DNA of 64,000 nt from a candidate division WOR-3 bacterium (lineage in GTDB: Bacteria > Hydrothermota > UBA3072 > B12-G15). Made by a program: the position numbers and the translations under genes. The notes below the pieces were generated by a model. That model saw only the letters and a list, made by a program, of their open reading frames with translations. It was not told the origin of the DNA and searched no databases. The DNA lies in contig CBFGJG010000003.1 of assembly GCA_965649055.1 (NCBI GenBank), positions 22,998-86,997 on the forward strand, written 5' to 3'. This document shows, piece after piece, positions 1,026-57,490 of this stretch (positions are counted from its first letter, which is position 1; every line of letters begins with the position of its first letter).

Positions 1026-1960
1026 TCTTCTAAATTTCTCAATAAGAGTTCAAACGATCTGGAAAGAAATATATCTTCAGGTATTTCTATTACATAACCT
1101 TCATTTTCCTTTTTTAAAATAATCTCTTTTTTCTGGAACAATGTATAGTCCTTAAAAAGAACTATAAGATGAATATCTGGTTCCTCGTTTATTATCTTCA
1201 AAATCTTTACGATAGAATTTCCATCCTGTAAATCTTTATTTAATAATTTCAGGATCCTATCCTTTGAAGAATTTATCTTTATCTTATTTTCGAACTTGAG
1301 TTCTTTTATTTTTCTTTCACAAAAAGGATGCATAACCTTTTGGAACAAAATATAATAAATCTCTTTTCCCAGATTTTTCCATTTTTTGCAATATTTTGTT
1401 TCAATAATATTTTCAAGGTTGGATTGATATCCATTTTCAAATATTGGCCTTAAAACCTTGTAATGCAACATTTCTTCAAGTATAAAATCCCTGTAAAATG
1501 AATGGTCTGTAAGTATGTGTATATACCCTTTGTCTTTTAATCTTGATGTCGCAAGTAGACTGAATTCCTTATCAAGAAGCCTTCTTTTCTCGTGCCTATT
1601 TTTGGGCCACGGGTCAGGAAAATTAATGTATATATTTTCAATCGAAGATTCTGGTATTAATAATTCAAATGCTGTGCTTGCATCAAGTAATACAAGATTG
1701 ACATTATTTATTTTATTCATCTTTATCTTTCTTAAAGTCTTTCTTAAACAAACCTTTGAATATTCAATACCAATAAAATTTCTGTTTTTTTCATTAAGCG
1801 CCTTCTTGACAATAAAATCACCTTCACCAAAACCTATTTCACAATCAACAGGATTATTATTATTGAAAATCTTCTGTAGATTAAGTGGTTTTTCTAATCT
1901 ATACCAGTCTAATATATTTTCCATCATTATAATAATTATAAAAAATCTGCTGATTGTCAA
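1022..1960 (-). CDS. trmB: tRNA (guanine46-N7)-methyltransferase TrmB with ~120-aa C-terminal extension
   Basis: SAM-binding EIGFGEGDF motif and the highly characteristic FPDPWPKNRHEKRRLL motif of TrmB. The 312-aa length exceeds typical TrmB (~210-240 aa). The 4-bp overlap with the gene at 6..1025 is convergent. Confidence 0.8.
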   Translation of the reverse strand: MTISRFFIIIIMMENILDWYRLEKPLNLQKIFNNNNPVDCEIGFGEGDFIVKKALNEKNRNFIGIEYSKVCLRKTLRKIKMNKINNVNLVLLDASTAFELLIPESSIENIYINFPDPWPKNRHEKRRLLDKEFSLLATSRLKDKGYIHILTDHSFYRDFILEEMLHYKVLRPIFENGYQSNLENIIETKYCKKWKNLGKEIYYILFQKVMHPFCERKIKELKFENKIKINSSKDRILKLLNKDLQDGNSIVKILKIINEEPDIHLIVLFKDYTLFQKKEIILKKENEGYVIEIPEDIFLSRSFELLLRNLED

Positions 1961-3904: not shown

Positions 3905-4146
3905 TCTATCCCCAGTATTTTTTTTATTCTTGGTTCGAGGTAAACATTCTTATCAATTTTTTCCCTCAAAATCTGAATCAATAGTTTTTTTTTGAATGAA
4001 TCTGAAAGGTTCTTGTTTATAACAATGTATTTCTTCCTGTATATCCTGCATGCACCACCTGAAGATAGTATTCTATCAACATAGACTTTAAAACCCAGCT
4101 TCTCTGCTATATCAATTAAAAATTTAAGGTCTTCATTTTTTTTCAT
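3901..4146 (-). CDS. Small hypothetical protein
   Basis: 81-aa basic ORF translationally coupled at both ends: a 14-nt overlap with the phosphomannomutase gene and a 4-nt overlap with DUF362. Confidence 0.35.
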   Translation of the reverse strand: MKKNEDLKFLIDIAEKLGFKVYVDRILSSGGACRIYRKKYIVINKNLSDSFKKKLLIQILREKIDKNVYLEPRIKKILGIE

Positions 4147-5491
4147 TTATAAATCCCATTACTAAATCTCTTATCTCGTTAAGTCTTTTTTCATCCTTTG
4201 CCTCAAACCTTGCGACTATTACGGGTTGGGTGTTTGAAGCACGTACAAGTCCCCAACCATCACCAAAAAGAATCCTTGCGCCATCAATACCAATAATATC
4301 ATATTTCCCTTTGAAATGTTTAATTACGTCCTCCACAATCTTCCATTTTTTATCTTCGGTTGTATCTATTCTTATTTCAGGAGTTGTATAATAATAGGGG
4401 ATTTCTTTTATCATCGCGGATATATTTTTTTCAGAATTTGAAACAATATCATAAAGCCTTAATGAGGAAAATATAGCATCATCGTATCCATAGTAGTCAC
4501 CACCGAAGAATATATGCCCGCTCATTTCACCTGCTAATGGTGAATTCAATTCCTTCATCTTTGCTTTAATCAATGAATGTCCAGTCTTCCACATAAACGG
4601 TCTTCCACCTATTTTTTCTATGAATTCAGAAGCACCCTGCGAAGACTTAACATCAAATATTATGTAAGAATTGGGGTATTTCTTCAAAACATATTTAGAA
4701 AATATACAGAGAAGTTTGTCTCCCCAAACAATATTTCCTTTATCGTCGATAACACCTATCCTGTCCGCATCTCCGTCATATCCAATACCAAAATCAGCAT
4801 TATTTTCAAGAACCTTCTTTTTCAAAGATTGCATATATTCTGGGATTGTCGGGTCAGGAAGATGATTTGGAAAATCTCCATCAGGTTCGCAGAAAATACA
4901 TTCAAAATCAGCACCAATTGAATTGAATAACCTTGAAGCTATCTCACCAGCAGTTCCATTACCAGGATCTATAACTATCTTAAGTTTTTTATTTGGATAT
5001 GTGATTGAAAGTGTTTTCTCAACATAATCATCTTTAACATCTTTCTTTAGAATCTTACCTTTCCCTTTCATAAAATCATTCTTTAATATAATATTCTTTA
5101 TTTCCTGTATAGATTCTCCGAAAAGTGTCTCTTCTCCAATCATCATCTTTAAACCATTGTATTCCTTCGGATTGTGGCTTCCTGTTACCATAACACCGCC
5201 ATCAAAACCATAATGAAAAACTGTAAAATATAGAAGTGGTGTTGGACACATACCAATATCAATAACATCTATCCCTGTTGAAATGATTCCTTTGCAAAGT
5301 GCCTCTTTAATCCTTGGAGATGTCTTTCTTGCATCAAATCCAACTGCTACTTCATTCCCAATCCTTTTTCTTCTTAACATTGAACCGTATGCCTTACCTA
5401 TAAGTTCGACGATATCATCAGTTAATTCCTCATCTGCTATTCCTCTTATATCGTACATCCTGAAAATTTCTTCATTCATCATTACCTCCAT
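4133..5491 (-). CDS. Phosphomannomutase/phosphoglucomutase (alpha-D-phosphohexomutase family)
   Basis: N-terminal MYDIRGIADEELT, the phosphoserine loop VTGSHNPKEYNG, the metal-binding GYDGDADR-like motif (GYDGDADRIG) and the sugar-binding GEMSGH motif. 452 aa. Confidence 0.85.
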   Translation of the reverse strand: MEVMMNEEIFRMYDIRGIADEELTDDIVELIGKAYGSMLRRKRIGNEVAVGFDARKTSPRIKEALCKGIISTGIDVIDIGMCPTPLLYFTVFHYGFDGGVMVTGSHNPKEYNGLKMMIGEETLFGESIQEIKNIILKNDFMKGKGKILKKDVKDDYVEKTLSITYPNKKLKIVIDPGNGTAGEIASRLFNSIGADFECIFCEPDGDFPNHLPDPTIPEYMQSLKKKVLENNADFGIGYDGDADRIGVIDDKGNIVWGDKLLCIFSKYVLKKYPNSYIIFDVKSSQGASEFIEKIGGRPFMWKTGHSLIKAKMKELNSPLAGEMSGHIFFGGDYYGYDDAIFSSLRLYDIVSNSEKNISAMIKEIPYYYTTPEIRIDTTEDKKWKIVEDVIKHFKGKYDIIGIDGARILFGDGWGLVRASNTQPVIVARFEAKDEKRLNEIRDLVMGFINEKK

Positions 5492-10476: not shown

Positions 10477-11792
10477 CTTTTAATATGGATTATTTTTCTT
10501 TTTTCAATTCCATCTTTTTTATTTAGAATTAGAATGTAAATTCCCTGTGGATAATTTACAAATTCAATATCAAGCCATCCATTTTGAATTTCTTCCTCTT
10601 TTATTTTTCTACCGTCAACACCTATAAGTGTATATTTTTTTGCATCAACCTGGATTTCTAATTTTCTTTCAACTATATGACTTTCTGAAACAAAAAATTT
10701 CTTTTTGCCGTTGTCGTAAAACTTGTAAAAAATCTTTTTATCGGGACTGCCCAAAATATATCCGTTCCAGAAAACAAAAATGTTCCCTTCAGAATCCTTT
10801 TTTATCAATGGATTTGAACAAAGATATGAAGATTCATTAAGTTTTATCGGTTCATTTATATTGTCATCAAAATAGAATATATCACCATTTTCTGACCAGA
10901 CGAAACTCCTGTATTCGCTAATATCAAGGTCGATTTCTGTAAGACTATTTGAAATATGTATTGTTTCTTTATCCTTCCAGGAATTTTCATATTCCCTATA
11001 AATAATGTGAATCTTACCGTTCCTTAATTCATTCCAGATCACTCCTATTTTACCGGAATGAAAATCAGAAACAGGGTTAAATGAATTTACCATTGTATCT
11101 GATATTATAATTGAAGAACCTTCATTAAAATTTTTACATTTGATAACTATTTTCCCATTCTTAACTTCTTCGAATATTAAAAAAGGTGAATTATTATATA
11201 ATGCTATGGAAGGGAAACCCGCATATATTTCAGAGTTAGAGACGATTAAATCGCTGGACCAGATACCTCTTTGTAAATACTTGTACAATATTTCTGATAG
11301 TCCATTTCTTGTGTCCTGCCAGACAATATGTATTACATTATTCCTTAAAAGAACTGATGGATTTATAGACCAATTTCCATCATTTTCGGTTACATTTTCG
11401 ATACCGCTGAAAATACCGCCAGAAATATTATGGTAATATTTTCTTAAAAAAATCTCGTTCTGGAAATTCATATGTTGATAGGATATCCTTCTATCATCCC
11501 AGATAATGTATATACAACTATCAGTAAAGAGAAGATTAGAATATCCTGCCCATAGAGAATAGACACTTCCAGCCCTTGATACATTCTTAAAGTAATCTAT
11601 GTTACAGTTTTTATTAACCCTTGCAAAGTAAACTTCAAGATAAGGGCTTGTATAACTTGAAAGAAAACTTATATACACATTACCGTTATTATCTGTATCG
11701 AGAGAATGAACAAATGATGGCGAGAGTATATTAACCTTATCACCTATATTTAATAATTTCTCTTGTGACCAGAAAGAAATAATCAGAATCAT
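10473..11792 (-). CDS. Secreted repeat (beta-propeller/BNR-like) protein with T9SS C-terminal sorting domain
   Basis: 439 aa with recurring S/D-x-N/E-G-x-I-x-V/I-W/F strand motifs (SENGDIFYF, DSEGNIFVFW, SGKIGVIW, NGKIHIIY). C-terminal GIYILILNKKDGIEKRKIIHIKR is CTD-like. 4-bp overlaps on both sides. Confidence 0.5.
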   Translation of the reverse strand: MILIISFWSQEKLLNIGDKVNILSPSFVHSLDTDNNGNVYISFLSSYTSPYLEVYFARVNKNCNIDYFKNVSRAGSVYSLWAGYSNLLFTDSCIYIIWDDRRISYQHMNFQNEIFLRKYYHNISGGIFSGIENVTENDGNWSINPSVLLRNNVIHIVWQDTRNGLSEILYKYLQRGIWSSDLIVSNSEIYAGFPSIALYNNSPFLIFEEVKNGKIVIKCKNFNEGSSIIISDTMVNSFNPVSDFHSGKIGVIWNELRNGKIHIIYREYENSWKDKETIHISNSLTEIDLDISEYRSFVWSENGDIFYFDDNINEPIKLNESSYLCSNPLIKKDSEGNIFVFWNGYILGSPDKKIFYKFYDNGKKKFFVSESHIVERKLEIQVDAKKYTLIGVDGRKIKEEEIQNGWLDIEFVNYPQGIYILILNKKDGIEKRKIIHIKR

Positions 11793-13048
11793 TTTAATCT
11801 AATTATCTTCTTCAAAATCCCGTTTTTTTTTAAAAAATAAACACCATTCTTAGAAATAGAATTTTTTCTACCTGTAATATCCAAAATTAAACTATCATTT
11901 TCAAAAAGCATGTTATTCCCTGAACCAACGAGATTCCCTTCTTTGTCTATCAACCTGTAAGATATTATATTACCATCAAACCTTATAATTTCGCTTTTTT
12001 TTACCTCCATAAGACATACAATTGTATCTTCTTTTGATCCTTCAAGAAGAATTTCTTTATCTATTGTAATCTTATCTTTAGAAACAATCTCTAAATAACC
12101 ATCTAAGTTCGAAATAATTTTTTTATTATCTATTATAAGGTTTATACCATTATTCTTATCAACGAACATTTTTCTTTGATTGAGAAACCATTTCCACATT
12201 ATGCAGAAGGAATTAAAATCATTATAGTCCATTAATCCGTCAGGTAGGCAATAAATATCCGGGAGCCTACCAGAATAAGGACCTGTTTCAAAATATGTAT
12301 CATTGTTTAGAAAAGCATTCCTGAATATTACAAAATCAAGAGAATTAACCTGGAGGTCAAGATCGAAATCACCTAAAGGAGAAATTATATAATTTACATA
12401 TATATCATCTAAAGGGCTTCCATCTTCAAAATTGTTCCAGTTCCCGTCTATTTTATTTCCAAAGATATCCTTTACTGAATCACCATTAAATTTAAATACG
12501 AGGTTGTCATTAGAACGTGGAATAGGATAGAGGTAAACATAGATAGTATCTTTTTTTATTTTTATCTCTTTCTTTGAATAAAAGATTGTATCCTGATAAT
12601 TGTAGGAGAAAATTTCAGTTCCACTATTAAAACTTGAAGAATCTATGTGAGAATTGAAGACAAATTTGAAAAGCCTTCCATCCGTTATTCCCTGGACAGG
12701 GGTTATGCTAACAAGTTGTGGTGGAGCAGGTGTGGGAACTTTTATAGTATCCTTAAAGATTACCCCGTTCGTTAGTTTTGAAAAAAAAGTATAGTAATAA
12801 TAGTATCCAGGAGAGAGTGAAACTGAATCAATAAACATATATGGTTTTAATGGCTCAAGGGGAATTCTTAGAAAACACCACCATTCATTTGGTGAGTTTG
12901 CAAATCTATCATATCTTCTTACGATAAACAATGATTCAATGGAACTTGAATCGGGGGATACAAATGTTATAAGGTTGAATGATTTGTATTTTGTTATTGA
13001 AAGATTATAGAGAAATGATATCTCAATAAATAACAATCGTTCCTCCAT
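11789..13048 (-). CDS. Secreted protein with dockerin-like Ca-binding repeat and T9SS CTD-like C-terminus
   Basis: 419 aa. GDFDLDLQVNSLDFVIFRNAFL fits the dockerin loop-helix pattern D-x-D-x-D-x-x-V-N-x-x-D-x3-L, and a partial second copy (DGLMDYNDFNSF) follows. The C-terminus NGVYFLKKNGILKKIIRLK is CTD-like. Confidence 0.4.
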   Translation of the reverse strand: MEERLLFIEISFLYNLSITKYKSFNLITFVSPDSSSIESLFIVRRYDRFANSPNEWWCFLRIPLEPLKPYMFIDSVSLSPGYYYYYTFFSKLTNGVIFKDTIKVPTPAPPQLVSITPVQGITDGRLFKFVFNSHIDSSSFNSGTEIFSYNYQDTIFYSKKEIKIKKDTIYVYLYPIPRSNDNLVFKFNGDSVKDIFGNKIDGNWNNFEDGSPLDDIYVNYIISPLGDFDLDLQVNSLDFVIFRNAFLNNDTYFETGPYSGRLPDIYCLPDGLMDYNDFNSFCIMWKWFLNQRKMFVDKNNGINLIIDNKKIISNLDGYLEIVSKDKITIDKEILLEGSKEDTIVCLMEVKKSEIIRFDGNIISYRLIDKEGNLVGSGNNMLFENDSLILDITGRKNSISKNGVYFLKKNGILKKIIRLK

Positions 13049-13742
13049 TTAGTGTATCTACAGGTATTTCAAATCCAAGTGAATCAAATATCTTTCCTTC
13101 CTTTATTTTAAATTCATATTTTCCTGTTTCATTTGAAGAAAATTTGAAATTCCCGATTATGAAATCCTGCTCAGGAAATCCATTCATGTTTGTCCTATAA
13201 ATCTCAAGTGAACATTGATATTCTTTGACTAAAACAATCGGTAGTGAATTCCCTGAAAAAACAGAGCTGTCTATCCTGTATTCGATTAAATTAATCTCTT
13301 TATCCCATGCCAATTTAACATATTCAAAACTATGTGTTTTTAGATTTTCACCTTTTAAGAGGATGTTAATATCCTGATATAAGCGCAATGAGTCAAAAAT
13401 AGGGGAGATTGAGAACCCATTTTTTAAACCATCGATACAGAAGATAATTTCAGGATAATTTTCTTCTTTTTCACCAAGGATATTTTTACCCCTTACCCAG
13501 AAATTATGCCACCCATCGTCGAGAATAAATGATACCGATTCAGAGATTGTCCAGTCTGATAATTTACCGTCAATTGAATACTGATAATATACCGTGCCAT
13601 CACCTTTCCAGACAATCTTTACAATGTTTGTGTTTATAATAGAACAATTTTCAGGACCTTTAATTATATTTGTCTTTGGAGATATTAGTTTCTCATTATA
13701 ACATCCTATCAGGAAAATGATTAGAATCAATGGTTTCTTCAT
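13023..13742 (-). CDS. Lipoprotein, unknown function
   Basis: N-terminal MKKPLILIIFLIGCYNE has a lipobox (L-I-G-C). 239 aa. 4-bp overlap with the upstream PfkB kinase gene. Confidence 0.5.
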   Translation of the reverse strand: MKKPLILIIFLIGCYNEKLISPKTNIIKGPENCSIINTNIVKIVWKGDGTVYYQYSIDGKLSDWTISESVSFILDDGWHNFWVRGKNILGEKEENYPEIIFCIDGLKNGFSISPIFDSLRLYQDINILLKGENLKTHSFEYVKLAWDKEINLIEYRIDSSVFSGNSLPIVLVKEYQCSLEIYRTNMNGFPEQDFIIGNFKFSSNETGKYEFKIKEGKIFDSLGFEIPVDTLNGGTIVIY

Positions 13743-14605
13743 ATTCCGGAAAGATAATTATATTTTTCCTTTATAGAATTTATTTTATCAAGGATACTGT
13801 CTCCGTTTATTCTTTCCAGAATCTCAACTGTATTTTTTACTGATAAGAAAGGATCTTTTGTATTCAGGAAGAAAGATATAAAAATTCCTGAAAATATATC
13901 ACCTGCACCAATAATATGTTTTTTCTCAGGATTTTTTGATACATAATGTTCAAGTCTTTTCTTATTGTATATATATGCACCTTTTTCAGCATCCGAAACT
14001 ATTATTATCTTATCATCAGGAAATATCTCAATACCTTCAGGGAAAAAACTGTGAACCAGAGCATAATATTCCCTCATATTCATCTGTATTATATCAAAAT
14101 TTTCTATGAGGATACGAGATTCTTCTTTTTCAAGCATTTTCTGGAATCTCTCACCATTTTCCTTTATACCTAATGTAAGGCTATGCACATCAAGCATTTT
14201 AAATGGTATTTTCAATTCTTTGATCCTATTCAGTGTTTCATATTTGAATTCCCAGCCCATCACAGGATTAATGAGAATAAGTTCAATATCTTCATCCATG
14301 TTTTCTAATAAACTTATATCTATTTCAGGTGAATATGGTGTTATGAATTCATACCTTTCATTATTGTAAACGTGAAGGACATTCCTGTTTGTCATTTCAA
14401 TCTCTATAACATATTTCAAGTCAATATTAGGTGTCATTAAGCTCATGAATTCTTTTTTTATATCCTTTCCGAGATAGGTTACAGGAAAAATCTTGATCCT
14501 CCTGTCAAGTGCTAAAGATAAAAGATTATATGTTATTCCACCAAGAGATTCAATATTCCCAATTTTGTCATAACTTATACTTCCTGCAATACCGACATTT
14601 CTCAT
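13739..14605 (-). CDS. PfkB-family carbohydrate kinase (first gene of operon)
   Basis: C-terminal HIIGAGDIFSGIF matches the PfkB GAGD anion-hole/ATP motif. The N-terminal Gly-rich sugar-binding region is VGIAGSISYDKIG. 288 aa. Confidence 0.55.
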   Translation of the reverse strand: MRNVGIAGSISYDKIGNIESLGGITYNLLSLALDRRIKIFPVTYLGKDIKKEFMSLMTPNIDLKYVIEIEMTNRNVLHVYNNERYEFITPYSPEIDISLLENMDEDIELILINPVMGWEFKYETLNRIKELKIPFKMLDVHSLTLGIKENGERFQKMLEKEESRILIENFDIIQMNMREYYALVHSFFPEGIEIFPDDKIIIVSDAEKGAYIYNKKRLEHYVSKNPEKKHIIGAGDIFSGIFISFFLNTKDPFLSVKNTVEILERINGDSILDKINSIKEKYNYLSGI

Positions 14606-14647
14606 TTTAATATTATAAAAAATAATAAAAAATTTTCAATATAAATC

Positions 14648-14676
14648 TTGACATTTTTTTTATTTTTGATTATTTT
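14648..14676 (+). promoter_or_regulatory. Sigma-70-type promoter (TTGACA-17-TATTTT) about 9 nt before the ATG at 14686
   Basis: TTGACA at 14648-14653 and an A/T-rich -10 17 nt downstream. No Shine-Dalgarno sequence precedes the ATG, suggesting a leaderless or very short-leader mRNA. Confidence 0.4.
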
Positions 14677-14685
14677 TTAATTAAT

Positions 14686-15066
14686 ATGATTATTTTATTT
14701 ATAGCACAGTTAGGAATGATACAGTCTAATATAAGTATAAACATCCAGGTTTGGGGTGAGGTTAGGAATCCAGGTATATTCAATGTCCCACCAAACATTA
14801 ATGTTATTGAGGCAATATCATTTGCAGGTGGTCCACTTAATACATCTGATCTTTCTAATGTAAAGATAGTTAGTTTGAACGGGAACATAAAGTTCATAAA
14901 TATTTCTTCTTATCTAAAAGGAGGAAAGGTCGACATTCCAATGATCTCACCCGGAGATATAGTTATCGTTCCAAGATCTGCCCTTTCAAATCTCGTCGAG
15001 TTTGTTAGATTTATGAGTATCGTAATAGGTGCTGCAGGAATTATCTTTTCCATAGTGGGGAGATAA
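14686..15066 (+). CDS. Polysaccharide export protein fragment (Wza-like Poly_export/PES domain only)
   Basis: GEVRNPGIFNVPPNINVIEAISFAGGPLNTSDLSNVKIVSL...ISPGDIVIVP matches the Wza N-terminal polysaccharide-export domain. At 126 aa it lacks the SLBB repeats and outer-membrane helix of full-length Wza. Confidence 0.6.
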   Translation: MIILFIAQLGMIQSNISINIQVWGEVRNPGIFNVPPNINVIEAISFAGGPLNTSDLSNVKIVSLNGNIKFINISSYLKGGKVDIPMISPGDIVIVPRSALSNLVEFVRFMSIVIGAAGIIFSIVGR

Positions 15067-18261: not shown

Positions 18262-18289
18262 TTGACAATTTTTCTTATTAAAATATTAT
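18262..18289 (+). promoter_or_regulatory. Sigma-70 promoter TTGACA-16-TATTAT driving tRNA-Leu
   Basis: TTGACA at 18262-18267 and TATTAT at 18284-18289. The tRNA 5' end (18298) lies ~8 nt downstream of the -10. Confidence 0.6.
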
Positions 18290-18297
18290 ATAAGAAG

Positions 18298-18378
18298 GCC
18301 GGGGTGGCGGAATTGGCAGACGCGCACGTTTGAGGGGCGTGTGGGATTCCCGTGGGGGTTCAAATCCCCCCTCCGGCA
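18298..18378 (+). tRNA. tRNA-Leu (anticodon GAG)
   Basis: Hand-folded cloverleaf. Acceptor stem GCCGGGG/CTCCGGC (one G-U pair) and U8. Anticodon stem CACGU/GCGUG with loop UUGAGGG (U33, GAG, G37). Long variable arm GGG-AUU-CCC, type II as in Leu. T-arm GGGGG-UUCAAAU-CCCCC, discriminator A, no encoded CCA. Confidence 0.85.
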
Positions 18379-20544: not shown

Positions 20545-20894
20545 CCTATAAGCTCTTTAACCTTGTTTATCAAGGTATCAATAGAAGACGATTTAATAAG
20601 ATAGGCATCGGCACCCCATGTAAGAAAATTATCCCTGTAAGTTCCGTAAGCTGAATTTATTATTATCTTTGTTTCTTTCTTAGCATTCAGAATTCTTCCC
20701 AGTGCTTCAATCCCGTCCATCTGTGGCATCCTTATATCAAGTATAACGAGTTCAAAATTACCTTTTTCAAATTTCTCCACACCTTCTATACCGTTTCTCG
20801 CACATTCCACAAAATATCCTTCGCCTTCAAGGACATCTTTATAAAGGTTCAATATATCCTCATCATCCTCAACCAGAAGAATTTTTTTGGGCAT
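20541..20894 (-). CDS. Single-domain response regulator (CheY-like receiver)
   Basis: KKILLVEDDEDIL, the phospho-acceptor Asp in LVILDIRMPQMDG and a conserved Lys region. 117 aa with a 26-nt overlap to the upstream kinase gene. Confidence 0.8.
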   Translation of the reverse strand: MPKKILLVEDDEDILNLYKDVLEGEGYFVECARNGIEGVEKFEKGNFELVILDIRMPQMDGIEALGRILNAKKETKIIINSAYGTYRDNFLTWGADAYLIKSSSIDTLINKVKELIG

Positions 20895-22206
20895 TTTCCT
20901 CCCTTTTTACGGGTATTTTCATCCTTATTCTTGTTCCAAAACCTTCCTTACTTTCAACTTCTATTTTACCATTATGTAATATAATAATTTTTTTGGTTAT
21001 CGCAAGACCTAATCCCAACCCATCCATTTTTAATGTATGAAAAGGAATAAAAAGATTTTTCATTATTTCATCCGGGATTCCAGAGCCATTATCTTTTATT
21101 TCGATTACTGCATTGTTGTTCTCTTTATATAATAAAATAAAAATCTCTCCATCTTTCTCAATAGCATCTATACTATTTCTTATAACATTTAAAATAGCGT
21201 GCTCAAGTAAAGAACTGTCTGCTACTATGTTAAAATCATCCCTATAATCTTTTATAAGTCGGATATTCTTCCTTGATATATCAGTTTCTACAAAGGATAT
21301 TACATTATCAAGAAATTTACATATGTTAAATTCTTTTAGATCCGGGACAGGGCTTCTTATGTAGTCTGAAAGATTCTGTATAATTAATTCAAGCCTCTTG
21401 GCGGTCTTTGAGATAATCTGGATATAATTTTTCACATCTTGTGGTATATCAGCCCTTTTTGATAATTTTTCAGAATAACCACCTATTATTGCAACGGGTG
21501 TCCTGAGTTCGTGTGCAAAAGTTGATGCTATTTCACCAATAGTGGCAAATTTTTCAAGCCTTATCAGATTCATCTGAGAATTTTTTAATTCAGTATATGC
21601 AGCTTCAAGTTCCATTTGTTTTTTTTTAACATTCTCGAATAACATTGATCTTTCTATTACATTCGATGCTATTGCAGCATAAAGTTCAAGTGTTTTCATA
21701 TCTTTCTCTGTGATTGGGTTGTTTGTGTATCTGTTATCAGCAATTATCAGTCCGAAGAATTCACTTTCACTCCTTAACGGAACGACTACACAGGGAGAAA
21801 ATTTGAAATATTTTTTAAATGACGCTGATAAGGTAGATACATCTTCTATTTTTACAGGTCCGTTGCTTAACAACTGTTCAGGGACTTCTGAAAGGAGCAC
21901 CTCGTCATTTGCTTCAAGCTTTGCAGCTGCCTTTCTTAATGGACATGTATCGAGCAGTTCTTCAAGACCTGTAGGTGAACGGGACATCTCTTCCCATATT
22001 TTTAATGCCTCCTCTTTTGTCTCAGGACCTATCCTTAGTCTTGGTATTAGTTTATCAACTTTTTTTTCCATTAAAACAGCATAATTGAAGGCAAGCCCTT
22101 CGCCAGCGGTTAATGCAGTGAGAATTCTACATAAAGAATCATCTATATCCAGTGATGTATGTAATTCTCTTGATATCCTCCAGAGTTTTTCAAATTCTAT
22201 ATCCAT
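20869..22206 (-). CDS. GAF-domain sensor histidine kinase
   Basis: H-box FAHELRTP, N/G1 and G2 boxes (IKDNGSGIPDE and GLGLGLAITKKII), with an N-terminal GAF-like region. 445 aa. Confidence 0.8.
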   Translation of the reverse strand: MDIEFEKLWRISRELHTSLDIDDSLCRILTALTAGEGLAFNYAVLMEKKVDKLIPRLRIGPETKEEALKIWEEMSRSPTGLEELLDTCPLRKAAAKLEANDEVLLSEVPEQLLSNGPVKIEDVSTLSASFKKYFKFSPCVVVPLRSESEFFGLIIADNRYTNNPITEKDMKTLELYAAIASNVIERSMLFENVKKKQMELEAAYTELKNSQMNLIRLEKFATIGEIASTFAHELRTPVAIIGGYSEKLSKRADIPQDVKNYIQIISKTAKRLELIIQNLSDYIRSPVPDLKEFNICKFLDNVISFVETDISRKNIRLIKDYRDDFNIVADSSLLEHAILNVIRNSIDAIEKDGEIFILLYKENNNAVIEIKDNGSGIPDEIMKNLFIPFHTLKMDGLGLGLAITKKIIILHNGKIEVESKEGFGTRIRMKIPVKREENAQKNSSG

Positions 22207-22212
22207 AATTTA

Positions 22213-22240
22213 ATTATATTTTCTATATTTTTTATGTCAA
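22213..22240 (-). promoter_or_regulatory. Sigma-70 promoter (TTGACA-16-TATAAT) placed 6 nt before the histidine-kinase ATG; leaderless transcript predicted
   Basis: On the minus strand the sequence reads cTTGACAtaaaaaatatagaaaaTATAATtaaattATG. The -35 overlaps the truD stop codon. Confidence 0.55.
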
Positions 22241-23393: not shown

Positions 23394-23699
23394 TTATTTT
23401 TTCTTTGATTTTGGCTTATATTTTTCTTTAAATATATGATGTTTCAGATAAGGTTTATCATCATCTGATTCAATTATTACATATGTTTTTAAAATGTAAG
23501 GTGGTTTTTGAACTTCAATCCATCTGTTATCTTTAAAAATAAAGTAAACTTTTGTCTCAGGATTGTAGTAAATTTCATATTCAGGATAATACCAGAAAAT
23601 ATACCTGTGTTTATTACCGTATGCATGACCATAAGGTGGCATTTTTATAACAACACAGGATAAGGTTAATAAAAATAAAAATGTATATACACTCTTCAT
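23394..23699 (-). CDS. Small lipoprotein, unknown function
   Basis: Signal peptide with lipobox (FLFLLTLSC). 101 aa with a Tyr/Pro-rich mature region and a Lys-rich tail. Confidence 0.4.
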   Translation of the reverse strand: MKSVYTFLFLLTLSCVVIKMPPYGHAYGNKHRYIFWYYPEYEIYYNPETKVYFIFKDNRWIEVQKPPYILKTYVIIESDDDKPYLKHHIFKEKYKPKSKKK

Positions 23700-23788
23700 A
23701 ATATTAATTTATAAAAAAAAATTAATGTGTCAAATAAATTTTCACTTTATCCTTGACATAAATTTTTATTCTTATAAATTTTACTAAA

Positions 23789-24283
23789 ATGGAAAAAGAA
23801 AAAAATAAACCTCTTTTTATTGCAGATGGTGTTAAGATATTTGGAGATGTCCGTTTTGGAAAAAATGTGAATATATGGTATAATGCAGTATTAAGAGGTG
23901 ATATAACATACATAGATATTGGTGATTATACAAATATTCAGGATAATTGTGTTATTCACGTTGATTATGATATGCCAGCAATAATAGGGTCTTATGTTAC
24001 TGTTGGTCATAGTGCAATCATTCATGGTGCAAAGATTTCATCAAATACGCTCATTGGTATGGGTTCAATAATCTTAAGCGGTGCAGAAATAGGTGAAGGT
24101 TCAATTATTGCAGCTGGTGCAGTGGTGAAAGAAAAGGAGAAGATACCACCTTTCTCACTTGTTGCAGGTGTTCCGGGAAAGATTATAAAGACACTTCCTG
24201 ATGATGTTATTGAAAAGATCAGGAAATCTGCAGAAGAATATGTTAAACTTGCAATTACACATCTAAATAATGACAAAAAATAA
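23789..24283 (+). CDS. Gamma-class carbonic anhydrase family / hexapeptide-repeat protein
   Basis: Left-handed beta-helix hexapeptide repeats plus the His motifs (CVIHVD...GHSAIIHGAKI) typical of gamma-CA/YrdA/PaaY proteins. A TTGACA-16-TAAATT element ends 8 nt before the ATG. Confidence 0.8.
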   Translation: MEKEKNKPLFIADGVKIFGDVRFGKNVNIWYNAVLRGDITYIDIGDYTNIQDNCVIHVDYDMPAIIGSYVTVGHSAIIHGAKISSNTLIGMGSIILSGAEIGEGSIIAAGAVVKEKEKIPPFSLVAGVPGKIIKTLPDDVIEKIRKSAEEYVKLAITHLNNDKK

Positions 24284-35301: not shown

Positions 35302-35306
35302 TTAAA

Positions 35307-35765: not shown

Positions 35766-35767
35766 AT

Positions 35768-39424: not shown

Positions 39425-39426
39425 TT

Positions 39427-41795: not shown

Positions 41796-42721
41796 AAAAA
41801 ATATCTTTAATAGTGAACTTTTTTTCTTTTAAGAAGATGCAGAATACTGTCCTTGAAATTGAGAAAAGACTCAAAAACTCCGGATTTAACACTGATTTAA
41901 AGGTTACTGATTATCCTTTTCACGCATATTATATTGCAAGGGATTCTGTGTTGAATGGTTCTTCCCTGATTGTATCGTTAGGTGGAGATGGAACAATAAA
42001 TGAGGTGATAAATGGTGTTTTATCTATTAAAGAGCAAGAATTACCGGAAATAGGTTTTATACCGCTCGGGACAGGTGTTGATTTTGTGAAAACAGTTGGT
42101 ATATCAAGGAAAATGGAAGAGGCACTTGATACAATAATAAATGGTGATGTTATATATTCAGATGTCGGGAGGGTTGTCCTAAATGAAAATGAGAAAGTTT
42201 ATACAAGATATTTTATAAATGTTCTTGATGCAGGGCTTGGTGGTAGTGTTGTTAGAATAGCCAGGAGATTACCCAAATCACTTGGTGGATATCCTGTGTT
42301 CCTTATTTCAAGTCTTTTGGGAATATTAACATTTAAACCATTCAAGGTAAAGATATTCATTGATGACGAATTTGTAGATGAAGGAAAAATAACCATTATA
42401 GGTGCAGCTAATGGAAGATATTTTGGGGGCGGTATGCATATTGCACCTATGGCAAAGATAGACGATGGAATCTTTGAATTCCTTTATGTTAAAGATACAA
42501 ATATATACACATTCATAAAAGAGGTGTTATTACCTGTTTATGACGCAAATCATCTTAAATATAAAAAACTTTACCATTTTAGGGGTAAAAAACTTAAGAT
42601 TTTAGGTGAAAATCATTTTCTTTTTGAGATGGACGGTGAACCTCTAAAGGCAAGGGAGATAGAATTAAGTATAGTTCAAAATAGAATTAAACTGAAGATT
42701 CCAAGAAAAAATCACTATTGA
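41792..42721 (+). CDS. Diacylglycerol-kinase catalytic-domain lipid kinase (YegS/BmrU family)
   Basis: VSLGGDGTINEVINGV contains the DAGK_cat GGDGT motif. 309 aa, with an ATGA overlap to the upstream gene. Confidence 0.75.
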   Translation: MKKISLIVNFFSFKKMQNTVLEIEKRLKNSGFNTDLKVTDYPFHAYYIARDSVLNGSSLIVSLGGDGTINEVINGVLSIKEQELPEIGFIPLGTGVDFVKTVGISRKMEEALDTIINGDVIYSDVGRVVLNENEKVYTRYFINVLDAGLGGSVVRIARRLPKSLGGYPVFLISSLLGILTFKPFKVKIFIDDEFVDEGKITIIGAANGRYFGGGMHIAPMAKIDDGIFEFLYVKDTNIYTFIKEVLLPVYDANHLKYKKLYHFRGKKLKILGENHFLFEMDGEPLKAREIELSIVQNRIKLKIPRKNHY

Positions 42722-42760
42722 CATTTTACATTAAGAACATATAATTAACAAAAATGTTAA
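42718..42760 (+). promoter_or_regulatory. Promoter (TTGACA-16-TATAAT) followed by palindrome TTAACA-AAAA-TGTTAA upstream of the AbiEi-like gene
   Basis: TTGACA at 42718-42723 overlaps the DAGK stop, and TATAAT is at 42740-42745. A perfect 6-bp inverted repeat at 42745-42760 overlaps the predicted transcription start. Confidence 0.45.
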
Positions 42761-42766
42761 TTTTTT

Positions 42767-43333
42767 ATGCTTAATGATAAACTTTTCTTTTCTGTTGAAG
42801 ATATTTCAAAAGAAAGAAGGATTTCAATAGGTTCTTCTAGAGTTTATCTTTCGAGGAAAATTAAGAAAGGCGATTTTTTAAGAGTTAAAAGGGATTTTTA
42901 TATAAAAACAGAAAGATTTTCAAATATGGGACTAGAAGAATTTTTTTATATTTCGAATTTTCTCCAATCTCCTTCTTATATTTCTCTTATGACTGCTTTA
43001 AATTTTTATGATATGACGTTACAGGTTCCAAGAATTATAGAAAATATATGTATTTACAGGACTAAAATATATACTGTAAAAGATTTTGAATTCAAGTATT
43101 ACAAGATAAACAGAAAACTCTTTTTTGGATATATAAGGGAAGGAAGTTTTTTTATTGCGACAAAGGAAAAAGCATTTTTTGATATGCTTTATCTTGCATC
43201 TTTTGGAAAATATCAATTTTCTATTTCTGAGATAAATTTAGATAGGTTTGACAAAAAAATATTAATTAATTTAGAAAAAAAATATCCAGAAAAGACAAAG
43301 CAATTTTTTAGAAAAATATGGAAGAACTTATAA
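42767..43333 (+). CDS. AbiEi-like antitoxin / transcriptional regulator (type IV TA, abortive-infection family)
   Basis: 188 aa immediately upstream of, and overlapping by 16 nt, a DUF1814/AbiEii-type nucleotidyltransferase. The N-terminal region has a winged-helix-like character. The assignment rests mainly on gene-pair context. Confidence 0.45.
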   Translation: MLNDKLFFSVEDISKERRISIGSSRVYLSRKIKKGDFLRVKRDFYIKTERFSNMGLEEFFYISNFLQSPSYISLMTALNFYDMTLQVPRIIENICIYRTKIYTVKDFEFKYYKINRKLFFGYIREGSFFIATKEKAFFDMLYLASFGKYQFSISEINLDRFDKKILINLEKKYPEKTKQFFRKIWKNL

Positions 43334-43993: not shown

Positions 43994-44021
43994 TTGACAA
44001 ATTTCATTGAATTCTTATAAT
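43994..44021 (+). promoter_or_regulatory. Consensus sigma-70 promoter TTGACA-16-TATAAT 8 nt before the leuS ATG (leaderless leuS)
   Basis: TTGACA at 43994-43999 and TATAAT at 44016-44021. The ATG is at 44030 with no SD sequence. Confidence 0.6.
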
Positions 44022-44029
44022 GTATAAAA

Positions 44030-46456
44030 ATGGAAAAAGAATATAATTTTAAAGAGATAGAAAAAATAGCAAGGGAAAAATGGGAAAGACTTTCTTTATA
44101 TAAGACTCCCGAAAATCCAAGGAAGAAGTTTTATCTCCTTGAGATGTTTCTTTATCCTTCGGGTGATATACATATGGGACATTGCAGAAATTATGTAATA
44201 GGTGATCTGATTTACAGATATAAAAGGATGAATGGATATGATATCCTTCATCCATTCGGATGGGATGCATTTGGGTTACCTGCTGAACAGGCAGCAATTA
44301 AAAGGGGTGCATCACCAAAAAAATGGGTTTATAATAACATAAATACATCTAAGAACACTTTAAAATTACTGAATATAAGTTATGACTGGGATAGGGAAGT
44401 TCTGACAGCAGAACCTTCTTATTATAAATGGAATCAGTGGATTTTCCTAAGATTGTATGAGAAAGGATTAGCATATAGAAAAAAATCCTATGTGAACTGG
44501 TGCCCGAGTTGTAAAACTGTTTTAGCTAATGAACAGGTTATCGGTGGAAGATGCTGGAGATGTGATTCAATCATTATAAAGAAAGAAATGGAACAATGGT
44601 ATTTCAAGATAACCGAATACGCAGAAAGATTGCTTCAAGGAATAGAAAGGTTGAAAGATTGGCCTGAAAACATAAAAACAATGCAGAAAAACTGGATAGG
44701 GAAGAGTATAGGAACAGAGATTGAATTTGATACAATAGATGGCGAGACTCTAAAAGTTTTCACAACAAGGGCTGATACACTTTTTGGTGTCACATTTATA
44801 TCAGTTGCACCTGAACATCCTTTTGCAAATGGAATAGATAAAAAAGAAGTTAAAGAATATATTGATAAGGCTCTGCTTATGACAGAGATAGATAGACAGA
44901 GTCAGGAAAGGGAAAAAACAGGCGTGTTTTCAGGTGTTTATGCAATCCATCCTTTGACAGGAGAAAAAGTCCCTGTTTTTGTAGCAGACTATGTGCTTTC
45001 AAGTTATGGAACTGGTGTTGTTATGGGTGTTCCTGCTCATGACCAGAGGGATTTTGAATTTGCTAAGAAATACAATCTACCGATAAAGGTGGTAATAAGC
45101 CCTGATGGAAAAGATTATGCTCCAGATATACTTGATAAGGCTTATGAGGAATATGGGATACTTGTAAATTCTTTTGAATTTAATGGTATGGATTCAAAAA
45201 CTGCAATTGATAGAATAAACGATAAACTCGAAAGACTGAATAAAGGAAGAAAGAAAATTACATATAAATTAAGGGACTGGCTTGTGTCAAGGCAGAGATA
45301 CTGGGGAACCCCTATACCTATGATACATTGCCCTGAATGCGGGATTGTCCCTGTTCCGGAAAATGAATTACCTGTTGTATTACCACCTGAAGATAAAGTG
45401 AATTTTATTCCACAGGGCAGGTCACCACTTGAGGACTGTTCTGAATTTTATAATGTGAAATGCCCTAAATGTGGTGGTGATGCACACAGGGACCCTGATA
45501 CAATGGATACATTTGTTGATTCATCCTGGTATCATTTAAGATACTTTGACCCAAAAAATGATAAGGAGATATTTAAAAGGGGAGAAGCGGATAAATGGTT
45601 CCCTATAGATTTATACATAGGTGGTGCTGAACATGCAACAGGACACCTTATATATTTCAGGTTCATAACTAAATTCCTTTACGATTTAGGTTACCTTAAA
45701 GATGATGAACCTGCTATAAGATTATTCAATCAGGGAATGGTATGTGATGAGAAAGGTCAGGTTATGTCAAAATCAAAAGGTAATACAGTAAGCCCAATTG
45801 ATATGATGAATAAGATAGGGCTTGATGCTACAAGGATAGCAGTTATATTTGCTGCACCACCTGAGAAGGATATTTTATGGTCAACAAAAGACCTTGCAGG
45901 TTCCGAAAGATTCTTAAAGAGGATTTATAACCATTTTACACCTTATATTTCAAGAAAGAACCCATTACCTGATAAAGATGATATTTTATATAAGAAGATA
46001 GAAAGGACAAAGAAATTCATAACAGAACACATTGAGAATTTTCTTTTTAATACTGCCGTAGCAGGTTTGATGGAAATGCTCAATGACATAACTGCCTATG
46101 AAGATAAAGGGAATGATACTTATGCTTATGTAATACAGGAATTCACAAAAATTCTCGCTCCTTTTGCCCCACATATATCTGAATATCTATATTCATTCTT
46201 TGGTAAGAAGGAAAGTATATTTTTTGAAGAATGGCCAAAGTATGACGAGGATGCGCTTTTTGACGAAGTGGTAACTGTCATAATACAGGTAAATGGTAAA
46301 TTAAGGGGAAAGGTTGAGGCAAAAAAAGGTTCAGATGAAAAGGATATCTTTGATAAGGCTATAAAGGATGAAAATATAAGAAAATTTATTGATGGAAAAG
46401 ATGTACTAAAAAAAATTTATATTCAGGATAAGATTCTTAATATTGTGGTGAAATAA
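44030..46456 (+). CDS. leuS: Leucine--tRNA ligase
   Basis: HIGH motif (HMGHCRNY), KMSKS motif (VMSKSKGNT) and the CP1 editing and Zn-knuckle regions (CPSCKT...CWRC, CPKCGG). 808 aa. Confidence 0.95.
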   Translation: MEKEYNFKEIEKIAREKWERLSLYKTPENPRKKFYLLEMFLYPSGDIHMGHCRNYVIGDLIYRYKRMNGYDILHPFGWDAFGLPAEQAAIKRGASPKKWVYNNINTSKNTLKLLNISYDWDREVLTAEPSYYKWNQWIFLRLYEKGLAYRKKSYVNWCPSCKTVLANEQVIGGRCWRCDSIIIKKEMEQWYFKITEYAERLLQGIERLKDWPENIKTMQKNWIGKSIGTEIEFDTIDGETLKVFTTRADTLFGVTFISVAPEHPFANGIDKKEVKEYIDKALLMTEIDRQSQEREKTGVFSGVYAIHPLTGEKVPVFVADYVLSSYGTGVVMGVPAHDQRDFEFAKKYNLPIKVVISPDGKDYAPDILDKAYEEYGILVNSFEFNGMDSKTAIDRINDKLERLNKGRKKITYKLRDWLVSRQRYWGTPIPMIHCPECGIVPVPENELPVVLPPEDKVNFIPQGRSPLEDCSEFYNVKCPKCGGDAHRDPDTMDTFVDSSWYHLRYFDPKNDKEIFKRGEADKWFPIDLYIGGAEHATGHLIYFRFITKFLYDLGYLKDDEPAIRLFNQGMVCDEKGQVMSKSKGNTVSPIDMMNKIGLDATRIAVIFAAPPEKDILWSTKDLAGSERFLKRIYNHFTPYISRKNPLPDKDDILYKKIERTKKFITEHIENFLFNTAVAGLMEMLNDITAYEDKGNDTYAYVIQEFTKILAPFAPHISEYLYSFFGKKESIFFEEWPKYDEDALFDEVVTVIIQVNGKLRGKVEAKKGSDEKDIFDKAIKDENIRKFIDGKDVLKKIYIQDKILNIVVK

Positions 46457-46460
46457 ATCT

Positions 46461-48155
46461 TTATTCTTTTGATATCTCATAAACTATAAAACGAGAATTC
46501 TTATATACTTCTTTAAAATTCAAACATTTTTCACTTTTCCACCTTACAATATAAATCCTTTCTGGTTTACTCTCCCAATTAAATATCTCCTGAGAAATTT
46601 TCCGAAAATCTTCTTCATAAAGGTCGTTGAAATCTTGATAATCAACAAGACCATCTTTGTAAAATATTTTTTTTTGTTTCAACTCTTGTAAATCCCTATT
46701 GTATCCTAATTTTTTCATCCTTCTGAACCACTCATATCCAAATTCAGGATTAAAATTTAACAAAGTCCCATCATACCAATCACCATATATTGTTCTTTCA
46801 GATTGAATCCTAAAACCATATTGGGTAGGAGGAACTATAAAAACATCATTTATCCTTGTATTTTTTTTAGCCCATTCTTGAGCGTCAATCCATGCTTTTT
46901 TATTTGGAGTGTCACTGTATTTAGTAATTATGAAAATTTTCAAAAAAATAACTACTAAAAGCATCATTAATAAGATAAGATTATTTAGATATTTTTCTTT
47001 TATATTTAAATTTCTATATTGATAAATAACTTTTGTAAATGTAATAATAATAAATACAGATAGAATTACTTCAAATATCGCGAAGCCGTAAAGTATAAAA
47101 AAAGCGACTATTAATGTTAAGAATTTATAAATCAATTTTTTCCCTTCTTTTGTTTCTTCATAAAAATAATGCACAAAATATATTACACCAAATATATATA
47201 TATAAATAAAGCTTCTAAAAACTTGTAAATTCAAAATTAAAGTCAAAGGTAAAAATTCAGAGAAGATAAAACCTATTAAACATAATGAAAATATTACAGA
47301 TGAAAAAATTACTATCATTCTATGTATTCTGAACTCAGGTTTATTTCTCCAAGTGATAAAGTATCCTGTTATAAAAAGAAAATTTTGAATGTATAAATCT
47401 TTTTTCCAGGACAATGGAAATAAATGTTCAGGTGAACGAAGCCTCAGTAAAAGAACCCAATTTTTATCCGGAATAAAATTCAAGCTTTCTGGAGAATAAA
47501 CAATTCTCCATATAATAATTGGTGATGAGATAATAAAGAAAATTGTAAGAGATATTATAAATTTTTTTATACCTATTTCCTTTATCTCAAAAAATGTAGC
47601 AACTATAATCATTATAATCACATATAGGGAACTTAATGGATGGATAAGAAAGCCAATACCTAAAAATATGTATGATTTAATATAATCTCTTGCTAAAAAA
47701 TAATAAATTGAGAAAATTAGAAAAGGTGCAACAACAAATCTTGTGATAACCATATTTTCTTGCAAAAGAATATTTGTGAATGTAAATCTATTAAAAAGAA
47801 ATATAAAAAGTGAGAGATATGTGGCAGTTTCATTTTTTGTAATTATCCTTGTGATAAGATATAATGCAAAAAATCTGAAATATATGGTTAAAATATAAAT
47901 TAAAGTGAAAAGTGCTTTTATATCAATATGGGTAAATTTTAAAATGCATGCTACTATATGCCATAATATAGTATAGTAATATTTCATTTCACCAATAATA
48001 TAATCGGAGGGATAAAGGCTTTTACACATTATCTTATTTATAAATGGAATTACAATATTATGGTCATATATATAATACTTTTGAGAATTGAATATAACAA
48101 TTTCTAAAATAGTAAAGAGTAAAACTATGATATGTGTTTTATATTTTTTGAACAT
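46461..48155 (-). CDS. Polytopic membrane protein, unknown family (copy 1 of duplicated module)
   Basis: 564 aa with more than 10 predicted transmembrane segments and a C-terminal soluble domain (WIDAQEWAKKNTRINDVFIVPP...NFNPEFGYEWFRRMKKLGY). Clear paralog of the gene at 51075..52730. A leaderless-type promoter (TTGACA-16-TATACT) ends 9 nt before its ATG. Confidence 0.5.
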   Translation of the reverse strand: MFKKYKTHIIVLLFTILEIVIFNSQKYYIYDHNIVIPFINKIMCKSLYPSDYIIGEMKYYYTILWHIVACILKFTHIDIKALFTLIYILTIYFRFFALYLITRIITKNETATYLSLFIFLFNRFTFTNILLQENMVITRFVVAPFLIFSIYYFLARDYIKSYIFLGIGFLIHPLSSLYVIIMIIVATFFEIKEIGIKKFIISLTIFFIISSPIIIWRIVYSPESLNFIPDKNWVLLLRLRSPEHLFPLSWKKDLYIQNFLFITGYFITWRNKPEFRIHRMIVIFSSVIFSLCLIGFIFSEFLPLTLILNLQVFRSFIYIYIFGVIYFVHYFYEETKEGKKLIYKFLTLIVAFFILYGFAIFEVILSVFIIITFTKVIYQYRNLNIKEKYLNNLILLMMLLVVIFLKIFIITKYSDTPNKKAWIDAQEWAKKNTRINDVFIVPPTQYGFRIQSERTIYGDWYDGTLLNFNPEFGYEWFRRMKKLGYNRDLQELKQKKIFYKDGLVDYQDFNDLYEEDFRKISQEIFNWESKPERIYIVRWKSEKCLNFKEVYKNSRFIVYEISKE

Positions 48156-48320
48156 ATTTTTTAGTATATTTTAATAATAATATTTGTCAAGTTTTTGGCG
48201 TCATGTGTTAACATTTGACATTTTCGTATATTTAGTTTCAATTGAATTAAGAAATATTGAATTGTGATAGAAAAAAGAAAATGATTTGACATAAAGTAAA
48301 ATATGCTTAATAATAAAAAT

Positions 48321-50249: not shown

Positions 50250-50293
50250 AAAGGGTATGTTGACAAAATTTTAACTGATTATAGAATAAATAT

Positions 50294-52730: not shown

Positions 52731-52822
52731 TTTCTTAATATACAAGTCTAAATAAAAATTGTCAAAGATTTTGAGCAGGCTATATTTCAATTGACAAACT
52801 CATTTATATGTTTTATGATAAA

Positions 52823-57392: not shown

Positions 57393-57490
57393 ATTTACCT
57401 CCGTTTATTCAATTATAAAATGATTGAATTTTTTGTCAATAATTTCTTGATTTTTTTTTAAAATTTTTTATTTTAAATAAAAAGGAGAAA

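Follow-up and report, generated by a model that had tools for sequence, protein, structure and literature searches.

Twelve protein-encoding genes and one tRNA gene in a 64-kb stretch of DNA from a candidate division WOR-3 bacterium (contig CBFGJG010000003.1; this whole stretch is the window referred to below) share the same layout at their starts, in which a -35 box, a spacer and a -10 box are located directly before the ATG codon or, for the tRNA gene, before the mature 5' end. The window has a guanine plus cytosine (GC) content of ~30%, and TGA is a stop codon in 26 of 58 window genes, i.e., genetic code 11 is used. The layout is real, and we consider it very probable that sigma-70-type promoters positioned at the ATG yield leaderless mRNAs for the first genes of transcription units and that the genes downstream of them rely on Shine-Dalgarno (SD) sites. 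The observations that carry this reading are the motif itself, its excess over chance, its homology-checked distance to the ATG, the exclusion of SD sites and its conservation in relatives. The leaderless arrangement was originally predicted from the sequence alone, and that prediction is now supported at both the sequence and the comparative level: the distance peaks at 6 nucleotides (nt), the start codons are all ATG, SD sites are missing at all 12 genes and the boxes are conserved.

Promoters that abut start codons

The sites in the window are the following (N, spacer or intervening nt; aa, amino acids; ORF, open reading frame).

22204..22240, minus strand: promoter and start of a histidine kinase gene; TTGACA (22240-22235), N16, TATAAT (22218-22213), N6 (TAAATT), ATG (22206-22204)
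43994..44032, plus strand: promoter and start of leuS; TTGACA-N16-TATAAT-N8-ATG (44030), occupying the 40-nt gap behind an AbiEii gene
23753..23791, plus strand: hexapeptide-repeat (gamma-carbonic-anhydrase-like) gene; TTGACA-N16-TAAATT-N8-ATG (23789)
23697..23733, minus strand: divergent partner of the 23789 gene, a 101-aa gene (23394..23699) that is followed by truD; TTGACA-N16-TAAATT-N6-ATG (23699)
14648..14688, plus strand: SLBB-domain (polysaccharide-export-like) gene; TTGACA-N17-TATTTT (a weak -10 box)-N9-ATG (14686)
14603..14639, minus strand: PfkB-like gene (13739..14605), divergent from the 14686 gene and head of a long minus-strand operon; TTGAAA-N16-TATAAT-N6-ATG (14605)
48153..48190, minus strand: DUF6798 gene (46461..48155); TTGACA-N16-TATACT-N7-ATG (48155)
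48286..48323, plus strand: PMT_2-family membrane glycosyltransferase-like gene; TTGACA-N17-AATAAT-N6-ATG (48321), with the ATG of the ORF list (48303) inside the spacer
50260..50296, plus strand: 263-aa gene without a Pfam match; TTGACA-N16-TAGAAT-N6-ATG (50294)
52728..52765, minus strand: second DUF6798 gene; TTGACA-N17-TATATT-N6-ATG (52730), with the TTG of the ORF list (52790) upstream of the promoter
52791..52828, plus strand: TPR-containing membrane protein gene; TTGACA-N17-TATGAT-N6-ATG (52826), with the ATG of the ORF list (52808) inside the spacer
1922..1960, minus strand: TrmB-like methyltransferase gene; TTGACA (1960-1955), N17, AATTAT, then N7 to ATG 1924 or N4 to ATG 1927
18262..18298, plus strand: tRNA-Leu(GAG) promoter; TTGACA-N16-TATTAT, 8 nt to the mature 5' end at 18298

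Eleven of the promoters of the 12 protein-encoding genes match TTGACA perfectly in the -35 box, the exception being that of 14605, and all 12 genes have ATG as the start codon. The distance between the -10 box and the ATG is 6 nt in seven genes, 7 nt in two, 8 nt in two and 9 nt in one. The layout was predicted for at least eight genes; all of the sites named were located in the sequence, and those at 23699(-), 14605(-) and 1924(-) are additions. The predicted start coordinates agree with the sequence as well, except that the gene placed at 52823 has its ATG at 52826. Two further candidates, 61477(-) and 63123(-, mnmA), are weak. A TTGACA-N17-AGTAAT-N6-ATG arrangement is also present at 61890-61928 (-), inside an ORF (61519..62046) that has a strong AGGAGG of its own at 62046; this site has either arisen by chance or is an internal promoter from which a leaderless isoform of 124 aa would be made.

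The histidine kinase gene (20869..22206, minus strand) heads an operon in which genes for a response regulator, an NTP-transferase and a GalT-like protein follow. The gene upstream of it, truD, ends with a TGA that falls within the -35 box of the kinase promoter. The 445-aa protein, which was originally described as a GAF-domain histidine kinase, has HisKA and HATPase_c domains, but the GAF match is weak (E=0.0015) and is under the Pfam cut-off.

TTGACA occurs 52 times on the two strands of the window. A stringent site was defined as an exact TTGACA, a spacer of 16-18 nt and TAnnnT with no more than two mismatches, and 100 dinucleotide shuffles of the sequence served as the null. The window has 19 stringent sites versus 6.9±2.6 in the shuffles, and most of them are directly at gene starts; that is, the sigma-70 elements (TTGACA, 16-18 nt, TATAAT) are enriched and they are upstream of genes. 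When an ATG 5-9 nt past the -10 box is included, 11 sites are observed and the shuffles have 0.53±0.70 (maximum 3). A motif frequency no higher than that expected for AT-rich DNA had been named at the outset as the result that would speak against the prediction, and these strict ATG-linked sites are well above it. At decoys, i.e., internal ATG or GTG codons, the promoter-at-ATG layout is present in only 4 of 1536 cases.

The tRNA-Leu gene was correctly predicted to share the layout; 8 nt separate its -10 box from the mature 5' end. We predict a 5' leader of 0-2 nt for this tRNA. The gene (18262-18385, plus strand, including the promoter) has no encoded CCA, and a TTTTT run follows immediately after the discriminator base. 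Judged from these features, tRNA-Leu(GAG) would be a nearly processing-free unit, although this is a single case: it is the only match in an Rfam search of the window, and no tRNAs were found in the related loci. The gene for the RNase P protein is present in a syntenic relative (L025), which argues against a loss of tRNA 5' processing.

Shine-Dalgarno sites, start codons and leadered units

Using a minimum of 5 nt to call an SD site, none of the 12 promoter-abutted starts has one, compared to 22 of 45 other genes (Fisher p=0.0018; start table of 58 ORFs). In the other genes the site has the form GGAGG or AGGAGGT and is 3-6 nt before the start. An automated gene-centered count gives the same picture: 12 of 60 genes have only the promoter, 24 have only an SD site, none has both and 23 have neither. 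Both halves of the predicted division of labor are therefore borne out, i.e., promoter-abutted genes lack SD sites and genes inside operons have strong GGAGG sites. For example, the response regulator gene behind the histidine kinase gene carries a GGAGG. The leaderless-type layout accounts for ~20% of the genes and for ~12 of the ~20 recognizable unit starts (roughly 60%), figures that apply to the window only.

The assignment of the start codons is supported by homology in several cases. Residue 4 of the window LeuS aligns to residue 3 of the Thermus thermophilus LeuS and residue 1 aligns to residue 2 of an 877-aa chain, both of which are solved structures. This places the true N-terminus at ATG 44030 with an uncertainty of one residue. 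The two DUF6798 paralogues have 43% identity, and M1 of one aligns to M21 of the other in its TTG-extended form. This alignment and the orthologue in the related contig L018 back the earlier suggestion that the start at 52790 is wrong and that 52730 is right. The start at 52808 was also suspected to be wrong, and the L018 TPR orthologue, which begins at the aligned Met, supports 52826. The case against 48303 is less complete: the promoter position favors 48321 (+), but the alignment of the PMT_2 orthologues does not discriminate between the two. In MnmA, the Pfam match begins at residue 1. A check of the initial 40 codons of each of the 12 genes found no downstream start with an SD site before it.

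These observations also bear on annotation. In this lineage, where TTGACA-N16/17-TAnnnT is followed by an ATG at a distance of 6-9 nt, that ATG can be taken as the actual start codon and also as the beginning of a transcription unit. Applied to the window, this promoter rule revises no fewer than three to four of the starts in the ORF list (1960, 52790, 52808 and probably 48303). The first of these is the TTG start listed for the TrmB-like gene, which is part of the -35 box itself. GGAGG fixes several more, because longest-ORF starts of the form ATGGAGG... or GTG...GGAGG are SD sites and the real starts are 3-7 codons downstream. The ORFs in which an SD site was miscalled as the start are:

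4133..5491
11789..13048
33863-34351
34336-35301
35298-35765
39409-39825
39842-40735

Some units in the window have leaders, and they include two with strong promoters:

42718..42769, plus strand: leadered promoter of an AbiEi-like/AbiEii pair; TTGACA-N16-TATAAT, 21 nt without an SD site, ATG 42767
57390..57439, minus strand: leadered promoter with an SD site; TTGACA-N16-TATAAT, 19 nt that hold GGAGGT, ATG 57392

Other SD-led unit starts are at 2128, 57491 and 59143. The AbiEi-like (weak PF13338 match)/AbiEii (PF08843) toxin-antitoxin pair is at 42718-43989 (+), directly upstream of leuS. A palindrome, TTAACAAAAATGTTAA (42745-42760; TTAACA-N4-TGTTAA), lies within the AbiEi-like leader and is kept before the orthologous pair in L020 (1279); given this conservation, it is probably the operator of the antitoxin. 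A leaderless 6-codon mini-ORF (ATG 42754) overlaps the start of the AbiEi-like gene and might have served in coupling; this reading was rejected, because the ATG of the mini-ORF is not kept in L020, unlike the palindrome.

The unit at 2128 is an unlisted 75-aa Cys-rich ORF, MECELCGCCSFCKK..., at 2128-2355 (+) with a strong GGGAGGAGG site, located in a 534-nt gap beside the trmB-like gene. This unit, with its SD site and leader, is divergent from the leaderless 1924 gene. A 498-nt 'gap' contains overlapping 91-aa and 78-aa ORFs in different frames at 58708-59143 (-), the first of which has an AGGAGG, and these may represent a frameshifted or split gene. All of the genes in a type IV pilus/pseudopilin cluster (33366-39424, plus strand) are SD-led; the cluster encodes N_methyl prepilins, PilW and a PilY1-like 1218-aa protein. 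It is part of a ~20 kb run of plus-strand genes and has a counterpart at 288-6718 in L019.

The layout in relatives

The analysis covered the 64-kb window and ~190 kb of sequence from relatives. The relatives with at most 64% LeuS identity came from genome and metagenome scans, and those with 87%, 85% and 70% identity came from a protein search and contig look-ups. The closest relatives by LeuS are metagenome-assembled genomes (MAGs) labeled candidate division WOR-3 (NCBI phylum Caldifarciminota) or 'uncultured bacterium'. Two contigs, L018 (87% LeuS identity) and L019 (85%), are syntenic with the window.

The leuS promoter is TTGACA-N16-TATAAT-N8 in the window, TTGACA-N16-TATAAT-N9 in L018 and TTGACT-N16-TAAAAT-N7 in L019, and the three spacers are unrelated. 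The boxes and the ATG distance are also kept, with diverged spacers, for the DUF6798, TPR and 263-aa genes. The L018 DUF6798 orthologue has TTGACA-N17-TATATT-N5-ATG, the L018 TPR orthologue has TTGACA-N16-TATATT-N6 before the Met aligned to 52826 and the L019 orthologue of the 263-aa gene has TTGACT-N16-TAAAAT-N7 ahead of its second ATG. In the SLBB orthologues of L020 and L021 the arrangement is TTGACA-N17-TATAAT-N6-GTG, with the GTG at the aligned codon, and in L024 it is TTGACA-N16-TATAAT-N7-ATG. The layout is also found at unrelated genes in relatives. In total, it is present at 20 of 139 genes in the WOR-3-like relatives versus none of 86 in outgroups (p=4.7e-5), which were Deltaproteobacteria, one Zixibacteria contig and one contig labeled Cloacimonadota.

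The leuS gene itself displays two patterns. In L020-L022 (70% LeuS identity) it lies 2 nt behind the preceding gene, there is no promoter and a G-rich 'caGGGGTaatATG' is present before the ATG. Thus leuS has its own promoter in some relatives and is operon-internal in others, which indicates that the mode of initiation depends on the position in the operon. The upstream neighbors of leuS are different in the relatives, and L024 has an AbiEii gene downstream of leuS. A 10-codon upstream ORF before the L020 gene 7085 was discarded; a comparison with L021 indicates that it is actually the C-terminal tail of the preceding gene.

The two divergent pairs of the window (46461-50249 and 51075-54751) each have a DUF6798 membrane protein gene facing a gene for a ~640-aa membrane protein, PMT_2-like in one and TPR-containing in the other. 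These two plus-strand genes are not homologous. L018 and L019 each have only one DUF6798 copy in this region.

Interpretation and comparison with known systems

The layout would operate as follows. An RpoD-type holoenzyme would use housekeeping promoters of the form TTGACA, 16-17 nt, TAnnnT. Transcription usually begins at the seventh nt past the -10 box, and at the most common distance, 6 nt, this position is the A of the ATG; initiation with ATP would occur at this A, or 1-3 nt upstream of it where the distance is 7-9 nt. The first gene of the unit would then be at the 5' end of a leaderless mRNA, and the ribosome would recognize the 5'-terminal AUG without SD pairing. The downstream cistrons of the same operons would be translated by way of strong SD pairing at GGAGG. 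We infer both the transcript 5' end and this mode of ribosome recruitment from the sequence. Because chance TATAAT-like hexamers are common in an AT-rich genome, it is plausible that the -35 box, which contains G and C, is kept nearly invariant for this reason.

Some of the results weigh against leaderless promoters of this kind. A loose consensus scan (9 of 12 matches to the promoter consensus) gives 78 matches in the window versus 67±7.4 expected, i.e., no enrichment. Since the loose scan is flat and the strict scan is enriched, the signal consists of near-perfect sites and a fixed ATG distance rather than of motif frequency. Three of the -10 boxes are weak, those of 14686 (TATTTT) and of 23699 and 23789 (TAAATT), and such hexamers are common in AT-rich DNA. 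The promoters at 48286 and 52791 are alike through the spacer, which suggests that they may have a shared ancestry and hence are not completely independent. Indeed, the plus-strand promoters of both divergent pairs share ATATGyTTnATnATAAAAATATG; the spacers of the remaining window promoters have no common sequence. At leuS, 23789 and 14686, the distances of 8-9 nt could mean leaders of 1-3 nt. Finally, L023 (GCA_037481815.1, a WOR-3 genome with 55% LeuS identity and 31% GC) has first genes that are mostly leadered and SD-carrying. For example, equally good TTGACA/TATAAT promoters at 8659-8716 and 17586-17640 are 26-28 nt before the ATG and have AGGAG in the leader. Therefore, the trait is not phylum-wide, and leaderless usage varies within WOR-3.

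Among the other explanations, the one that survives best is that the promoters are real but that the mRNAs are not strictly leaderless. They would have leaders of a few nt, or would come from other upstream promoters or from read-through, and would be translated by an SD-independent route involving S1 or AT-rich sequence. We regard this as rather unlikely. Such a leadered route is typical of Bacteroidota and other bacteria of the Fibrobacteres-Chlorobi-Bacteroidetes (FCB) group. Five of the 12 sites have distances of 7-9 nt, which do permit leaders of 1-3 nt; in studies that map transcription start sites, such as that of Cortes et al. in 2013, leaders of 5 nt or less are reportedly classed as leaderless by convention. 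Three of the promoters are 30-45 nt behind a same-strand gene, one of them overlapping its stop, and because this leaves no room for a terminator, read-through is probable there. In addition, some SD-independent initiation must exist, since ~23 genes have neither an SD site nor a promoter by strict criteria. However, the sharp peak at 6 nt has no explanation if the start codon and the transcription start are not coupled. Likewise, the GGAGG at internal genes indicates that the anti-SD route is active, and so the absence of SD sites is specific to the promoter-abutted genes.

A second explanation is that the start codons have been mis-assigned and that the true starts are downstream, with an ordinary leader and ribosome binding site, in which case the ATG by the -10 box would be there by accident. 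It is true that many of the starts listed for the ORFs of the window are wrong, as the 'ATGGAGG...' cases indicate. This explanation is nevertheless very improbable because the LeuS N-terminus is fixed by the solved structures, the proposed Met is where the alignments with paralogues and orthologues begin and no SD-led start was found in the first 40 codons of the 12 genes. Furthermore, chance would place an ATG at 5-9 nt in ~0.5 sites per window, compared to the 11 that are present. The last explanation is that the sites match by chance because the DNA is AT-rich, or that they were copied from a single segment that was duplicated or mobile. It is hardly credible and is already contradicted by the shuffle and footprint results: it can call on the loose scan, on the 43% identical DUF6798 paralogues and on the likeness of promoters 48286 and 52791, but the ATG-coupled stringent sites are ~20-fold over the shuffles, the other promoters share no spacer sequence, L018 and L019 keep boxes and spacing despite spacer divergence, and unrelated genes in relatives have the same layout.

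Leaderless promoters directly at the ATG are an architecture of a known kind. In the 'group C' genomes of GeneMarkS-2, a Pribnow box is 6-8 nt before the starts of first genes and the remaining genes have SD sites; for Mycobacterium tuberculosis, the distance from the -10 box to the start is given as 6-8 nt (PMC6028130). Zheng et al. 2011 reported a similar leaderless signal in Actinobacteria, Deinococcus-Thermus, Aquificae and others (PMC3160421). Recognition of a 5'-terminal AUG without an SD site is established in Mycobacterium, Streptomyces, Deinococcus and others (PMC6028130, PMC3160421, PMC8459731).

The window resembles group C members, such as M. tuberculosis, Streptomyces, Corynebacterium and Deinococcus deserti, in its box distance, in the lack of SD sites at first genes and, counted over these 64 kb, in a share of ~20% or more of the genes. 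However, the code-11 group C genomes are almost all high-GC and have a TAnnnT -10 box with little -35 information, whereas the window has ~30% GC, -10 boxes near TATAAT and the nearly constant TTGACA. Low-GC group C genomes are reported only among the code-4 Mycoplasma, where 30-60% of the transcripts are predicted to be leaderless (MetaGeneMark-2 preprint 10.1101/2022.07.25.500264). The window shares the low GC with them, but in code 4 TGA encodes Trp, and the lineages are unrelated.

Aquifex aeolicus is also similar in that roughly one in four of its genes has a TAtaaT-type -10 box ~10 nt ahead of the start (PMC3160421). We found no -35 analysis in Zheng et al. 2011, and 'TTGACA' does not occur in its text (PMC3160421). 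The Aquificae are a different phylum from the lineage described here. They are thermophiles. Hot springs and hydrothermal vents are among the habitats given for WOR-3 in one source (PMC12542636).

Group B genomes of FCB bacteria and Bacteroidota, in which all genes have an AT-rich non-SD ribosome binding site, resemble the window in being AT-rich and in having many genes without an SD site. They differ in that their non-SD motif is borne on a leader and is also present before internal genes; in the window, internal genes have GGAGG or AGGAGGT and first genes have a full -35/-10 promoter. Thus, group B-type initiation, with SD sites absent and the same non-SD motif at internal genes, is not found here.

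What is new is the occurrence of this architecture in a WOR-3-like lineage and its low GC at code 11. Our literature search found no publication that joins 'leaderless' with 'WOR-3', and neither 'promoter' nor 'Shine-Dalgarno' is in the text of the paper on the first cultured WOR-3 isolate (PMC12285271). We give roughly even chances to a broader proposal, namely that a clade within WOR-3 (Caldifarciminota) is an unrecognized leaderless-rich, low-GC, code-11 lineage in which most units start exactly at the ATG from near-perfect TTGACA/TATAAT promoters, even a tRNA is nearly leaderless and the trait has been gained or lost within the phylum. If this proposal is correct, the link between leaderless initiation and high GC in current surveys would be broken, and metagenome gene finders that bin by GC would mis-call starts in such contigs.

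In conclusion, no new mechanism is implied and the biological surprise is modest, but the annotation of starts in these MAGs is helped. Current surveys tie a reliance on leaderless mRNAs to high-GC Actinobacteria, to Deinococcus-Thermus or to code-4 Mycoplasma, and with the results described here an uncultured lineage with low GC and code 11 joins the bacteria that lean heavily on them. The variation within WOR-3, together with the two modes of leuS, makes this group a tractable system for the switching of initiation modes.

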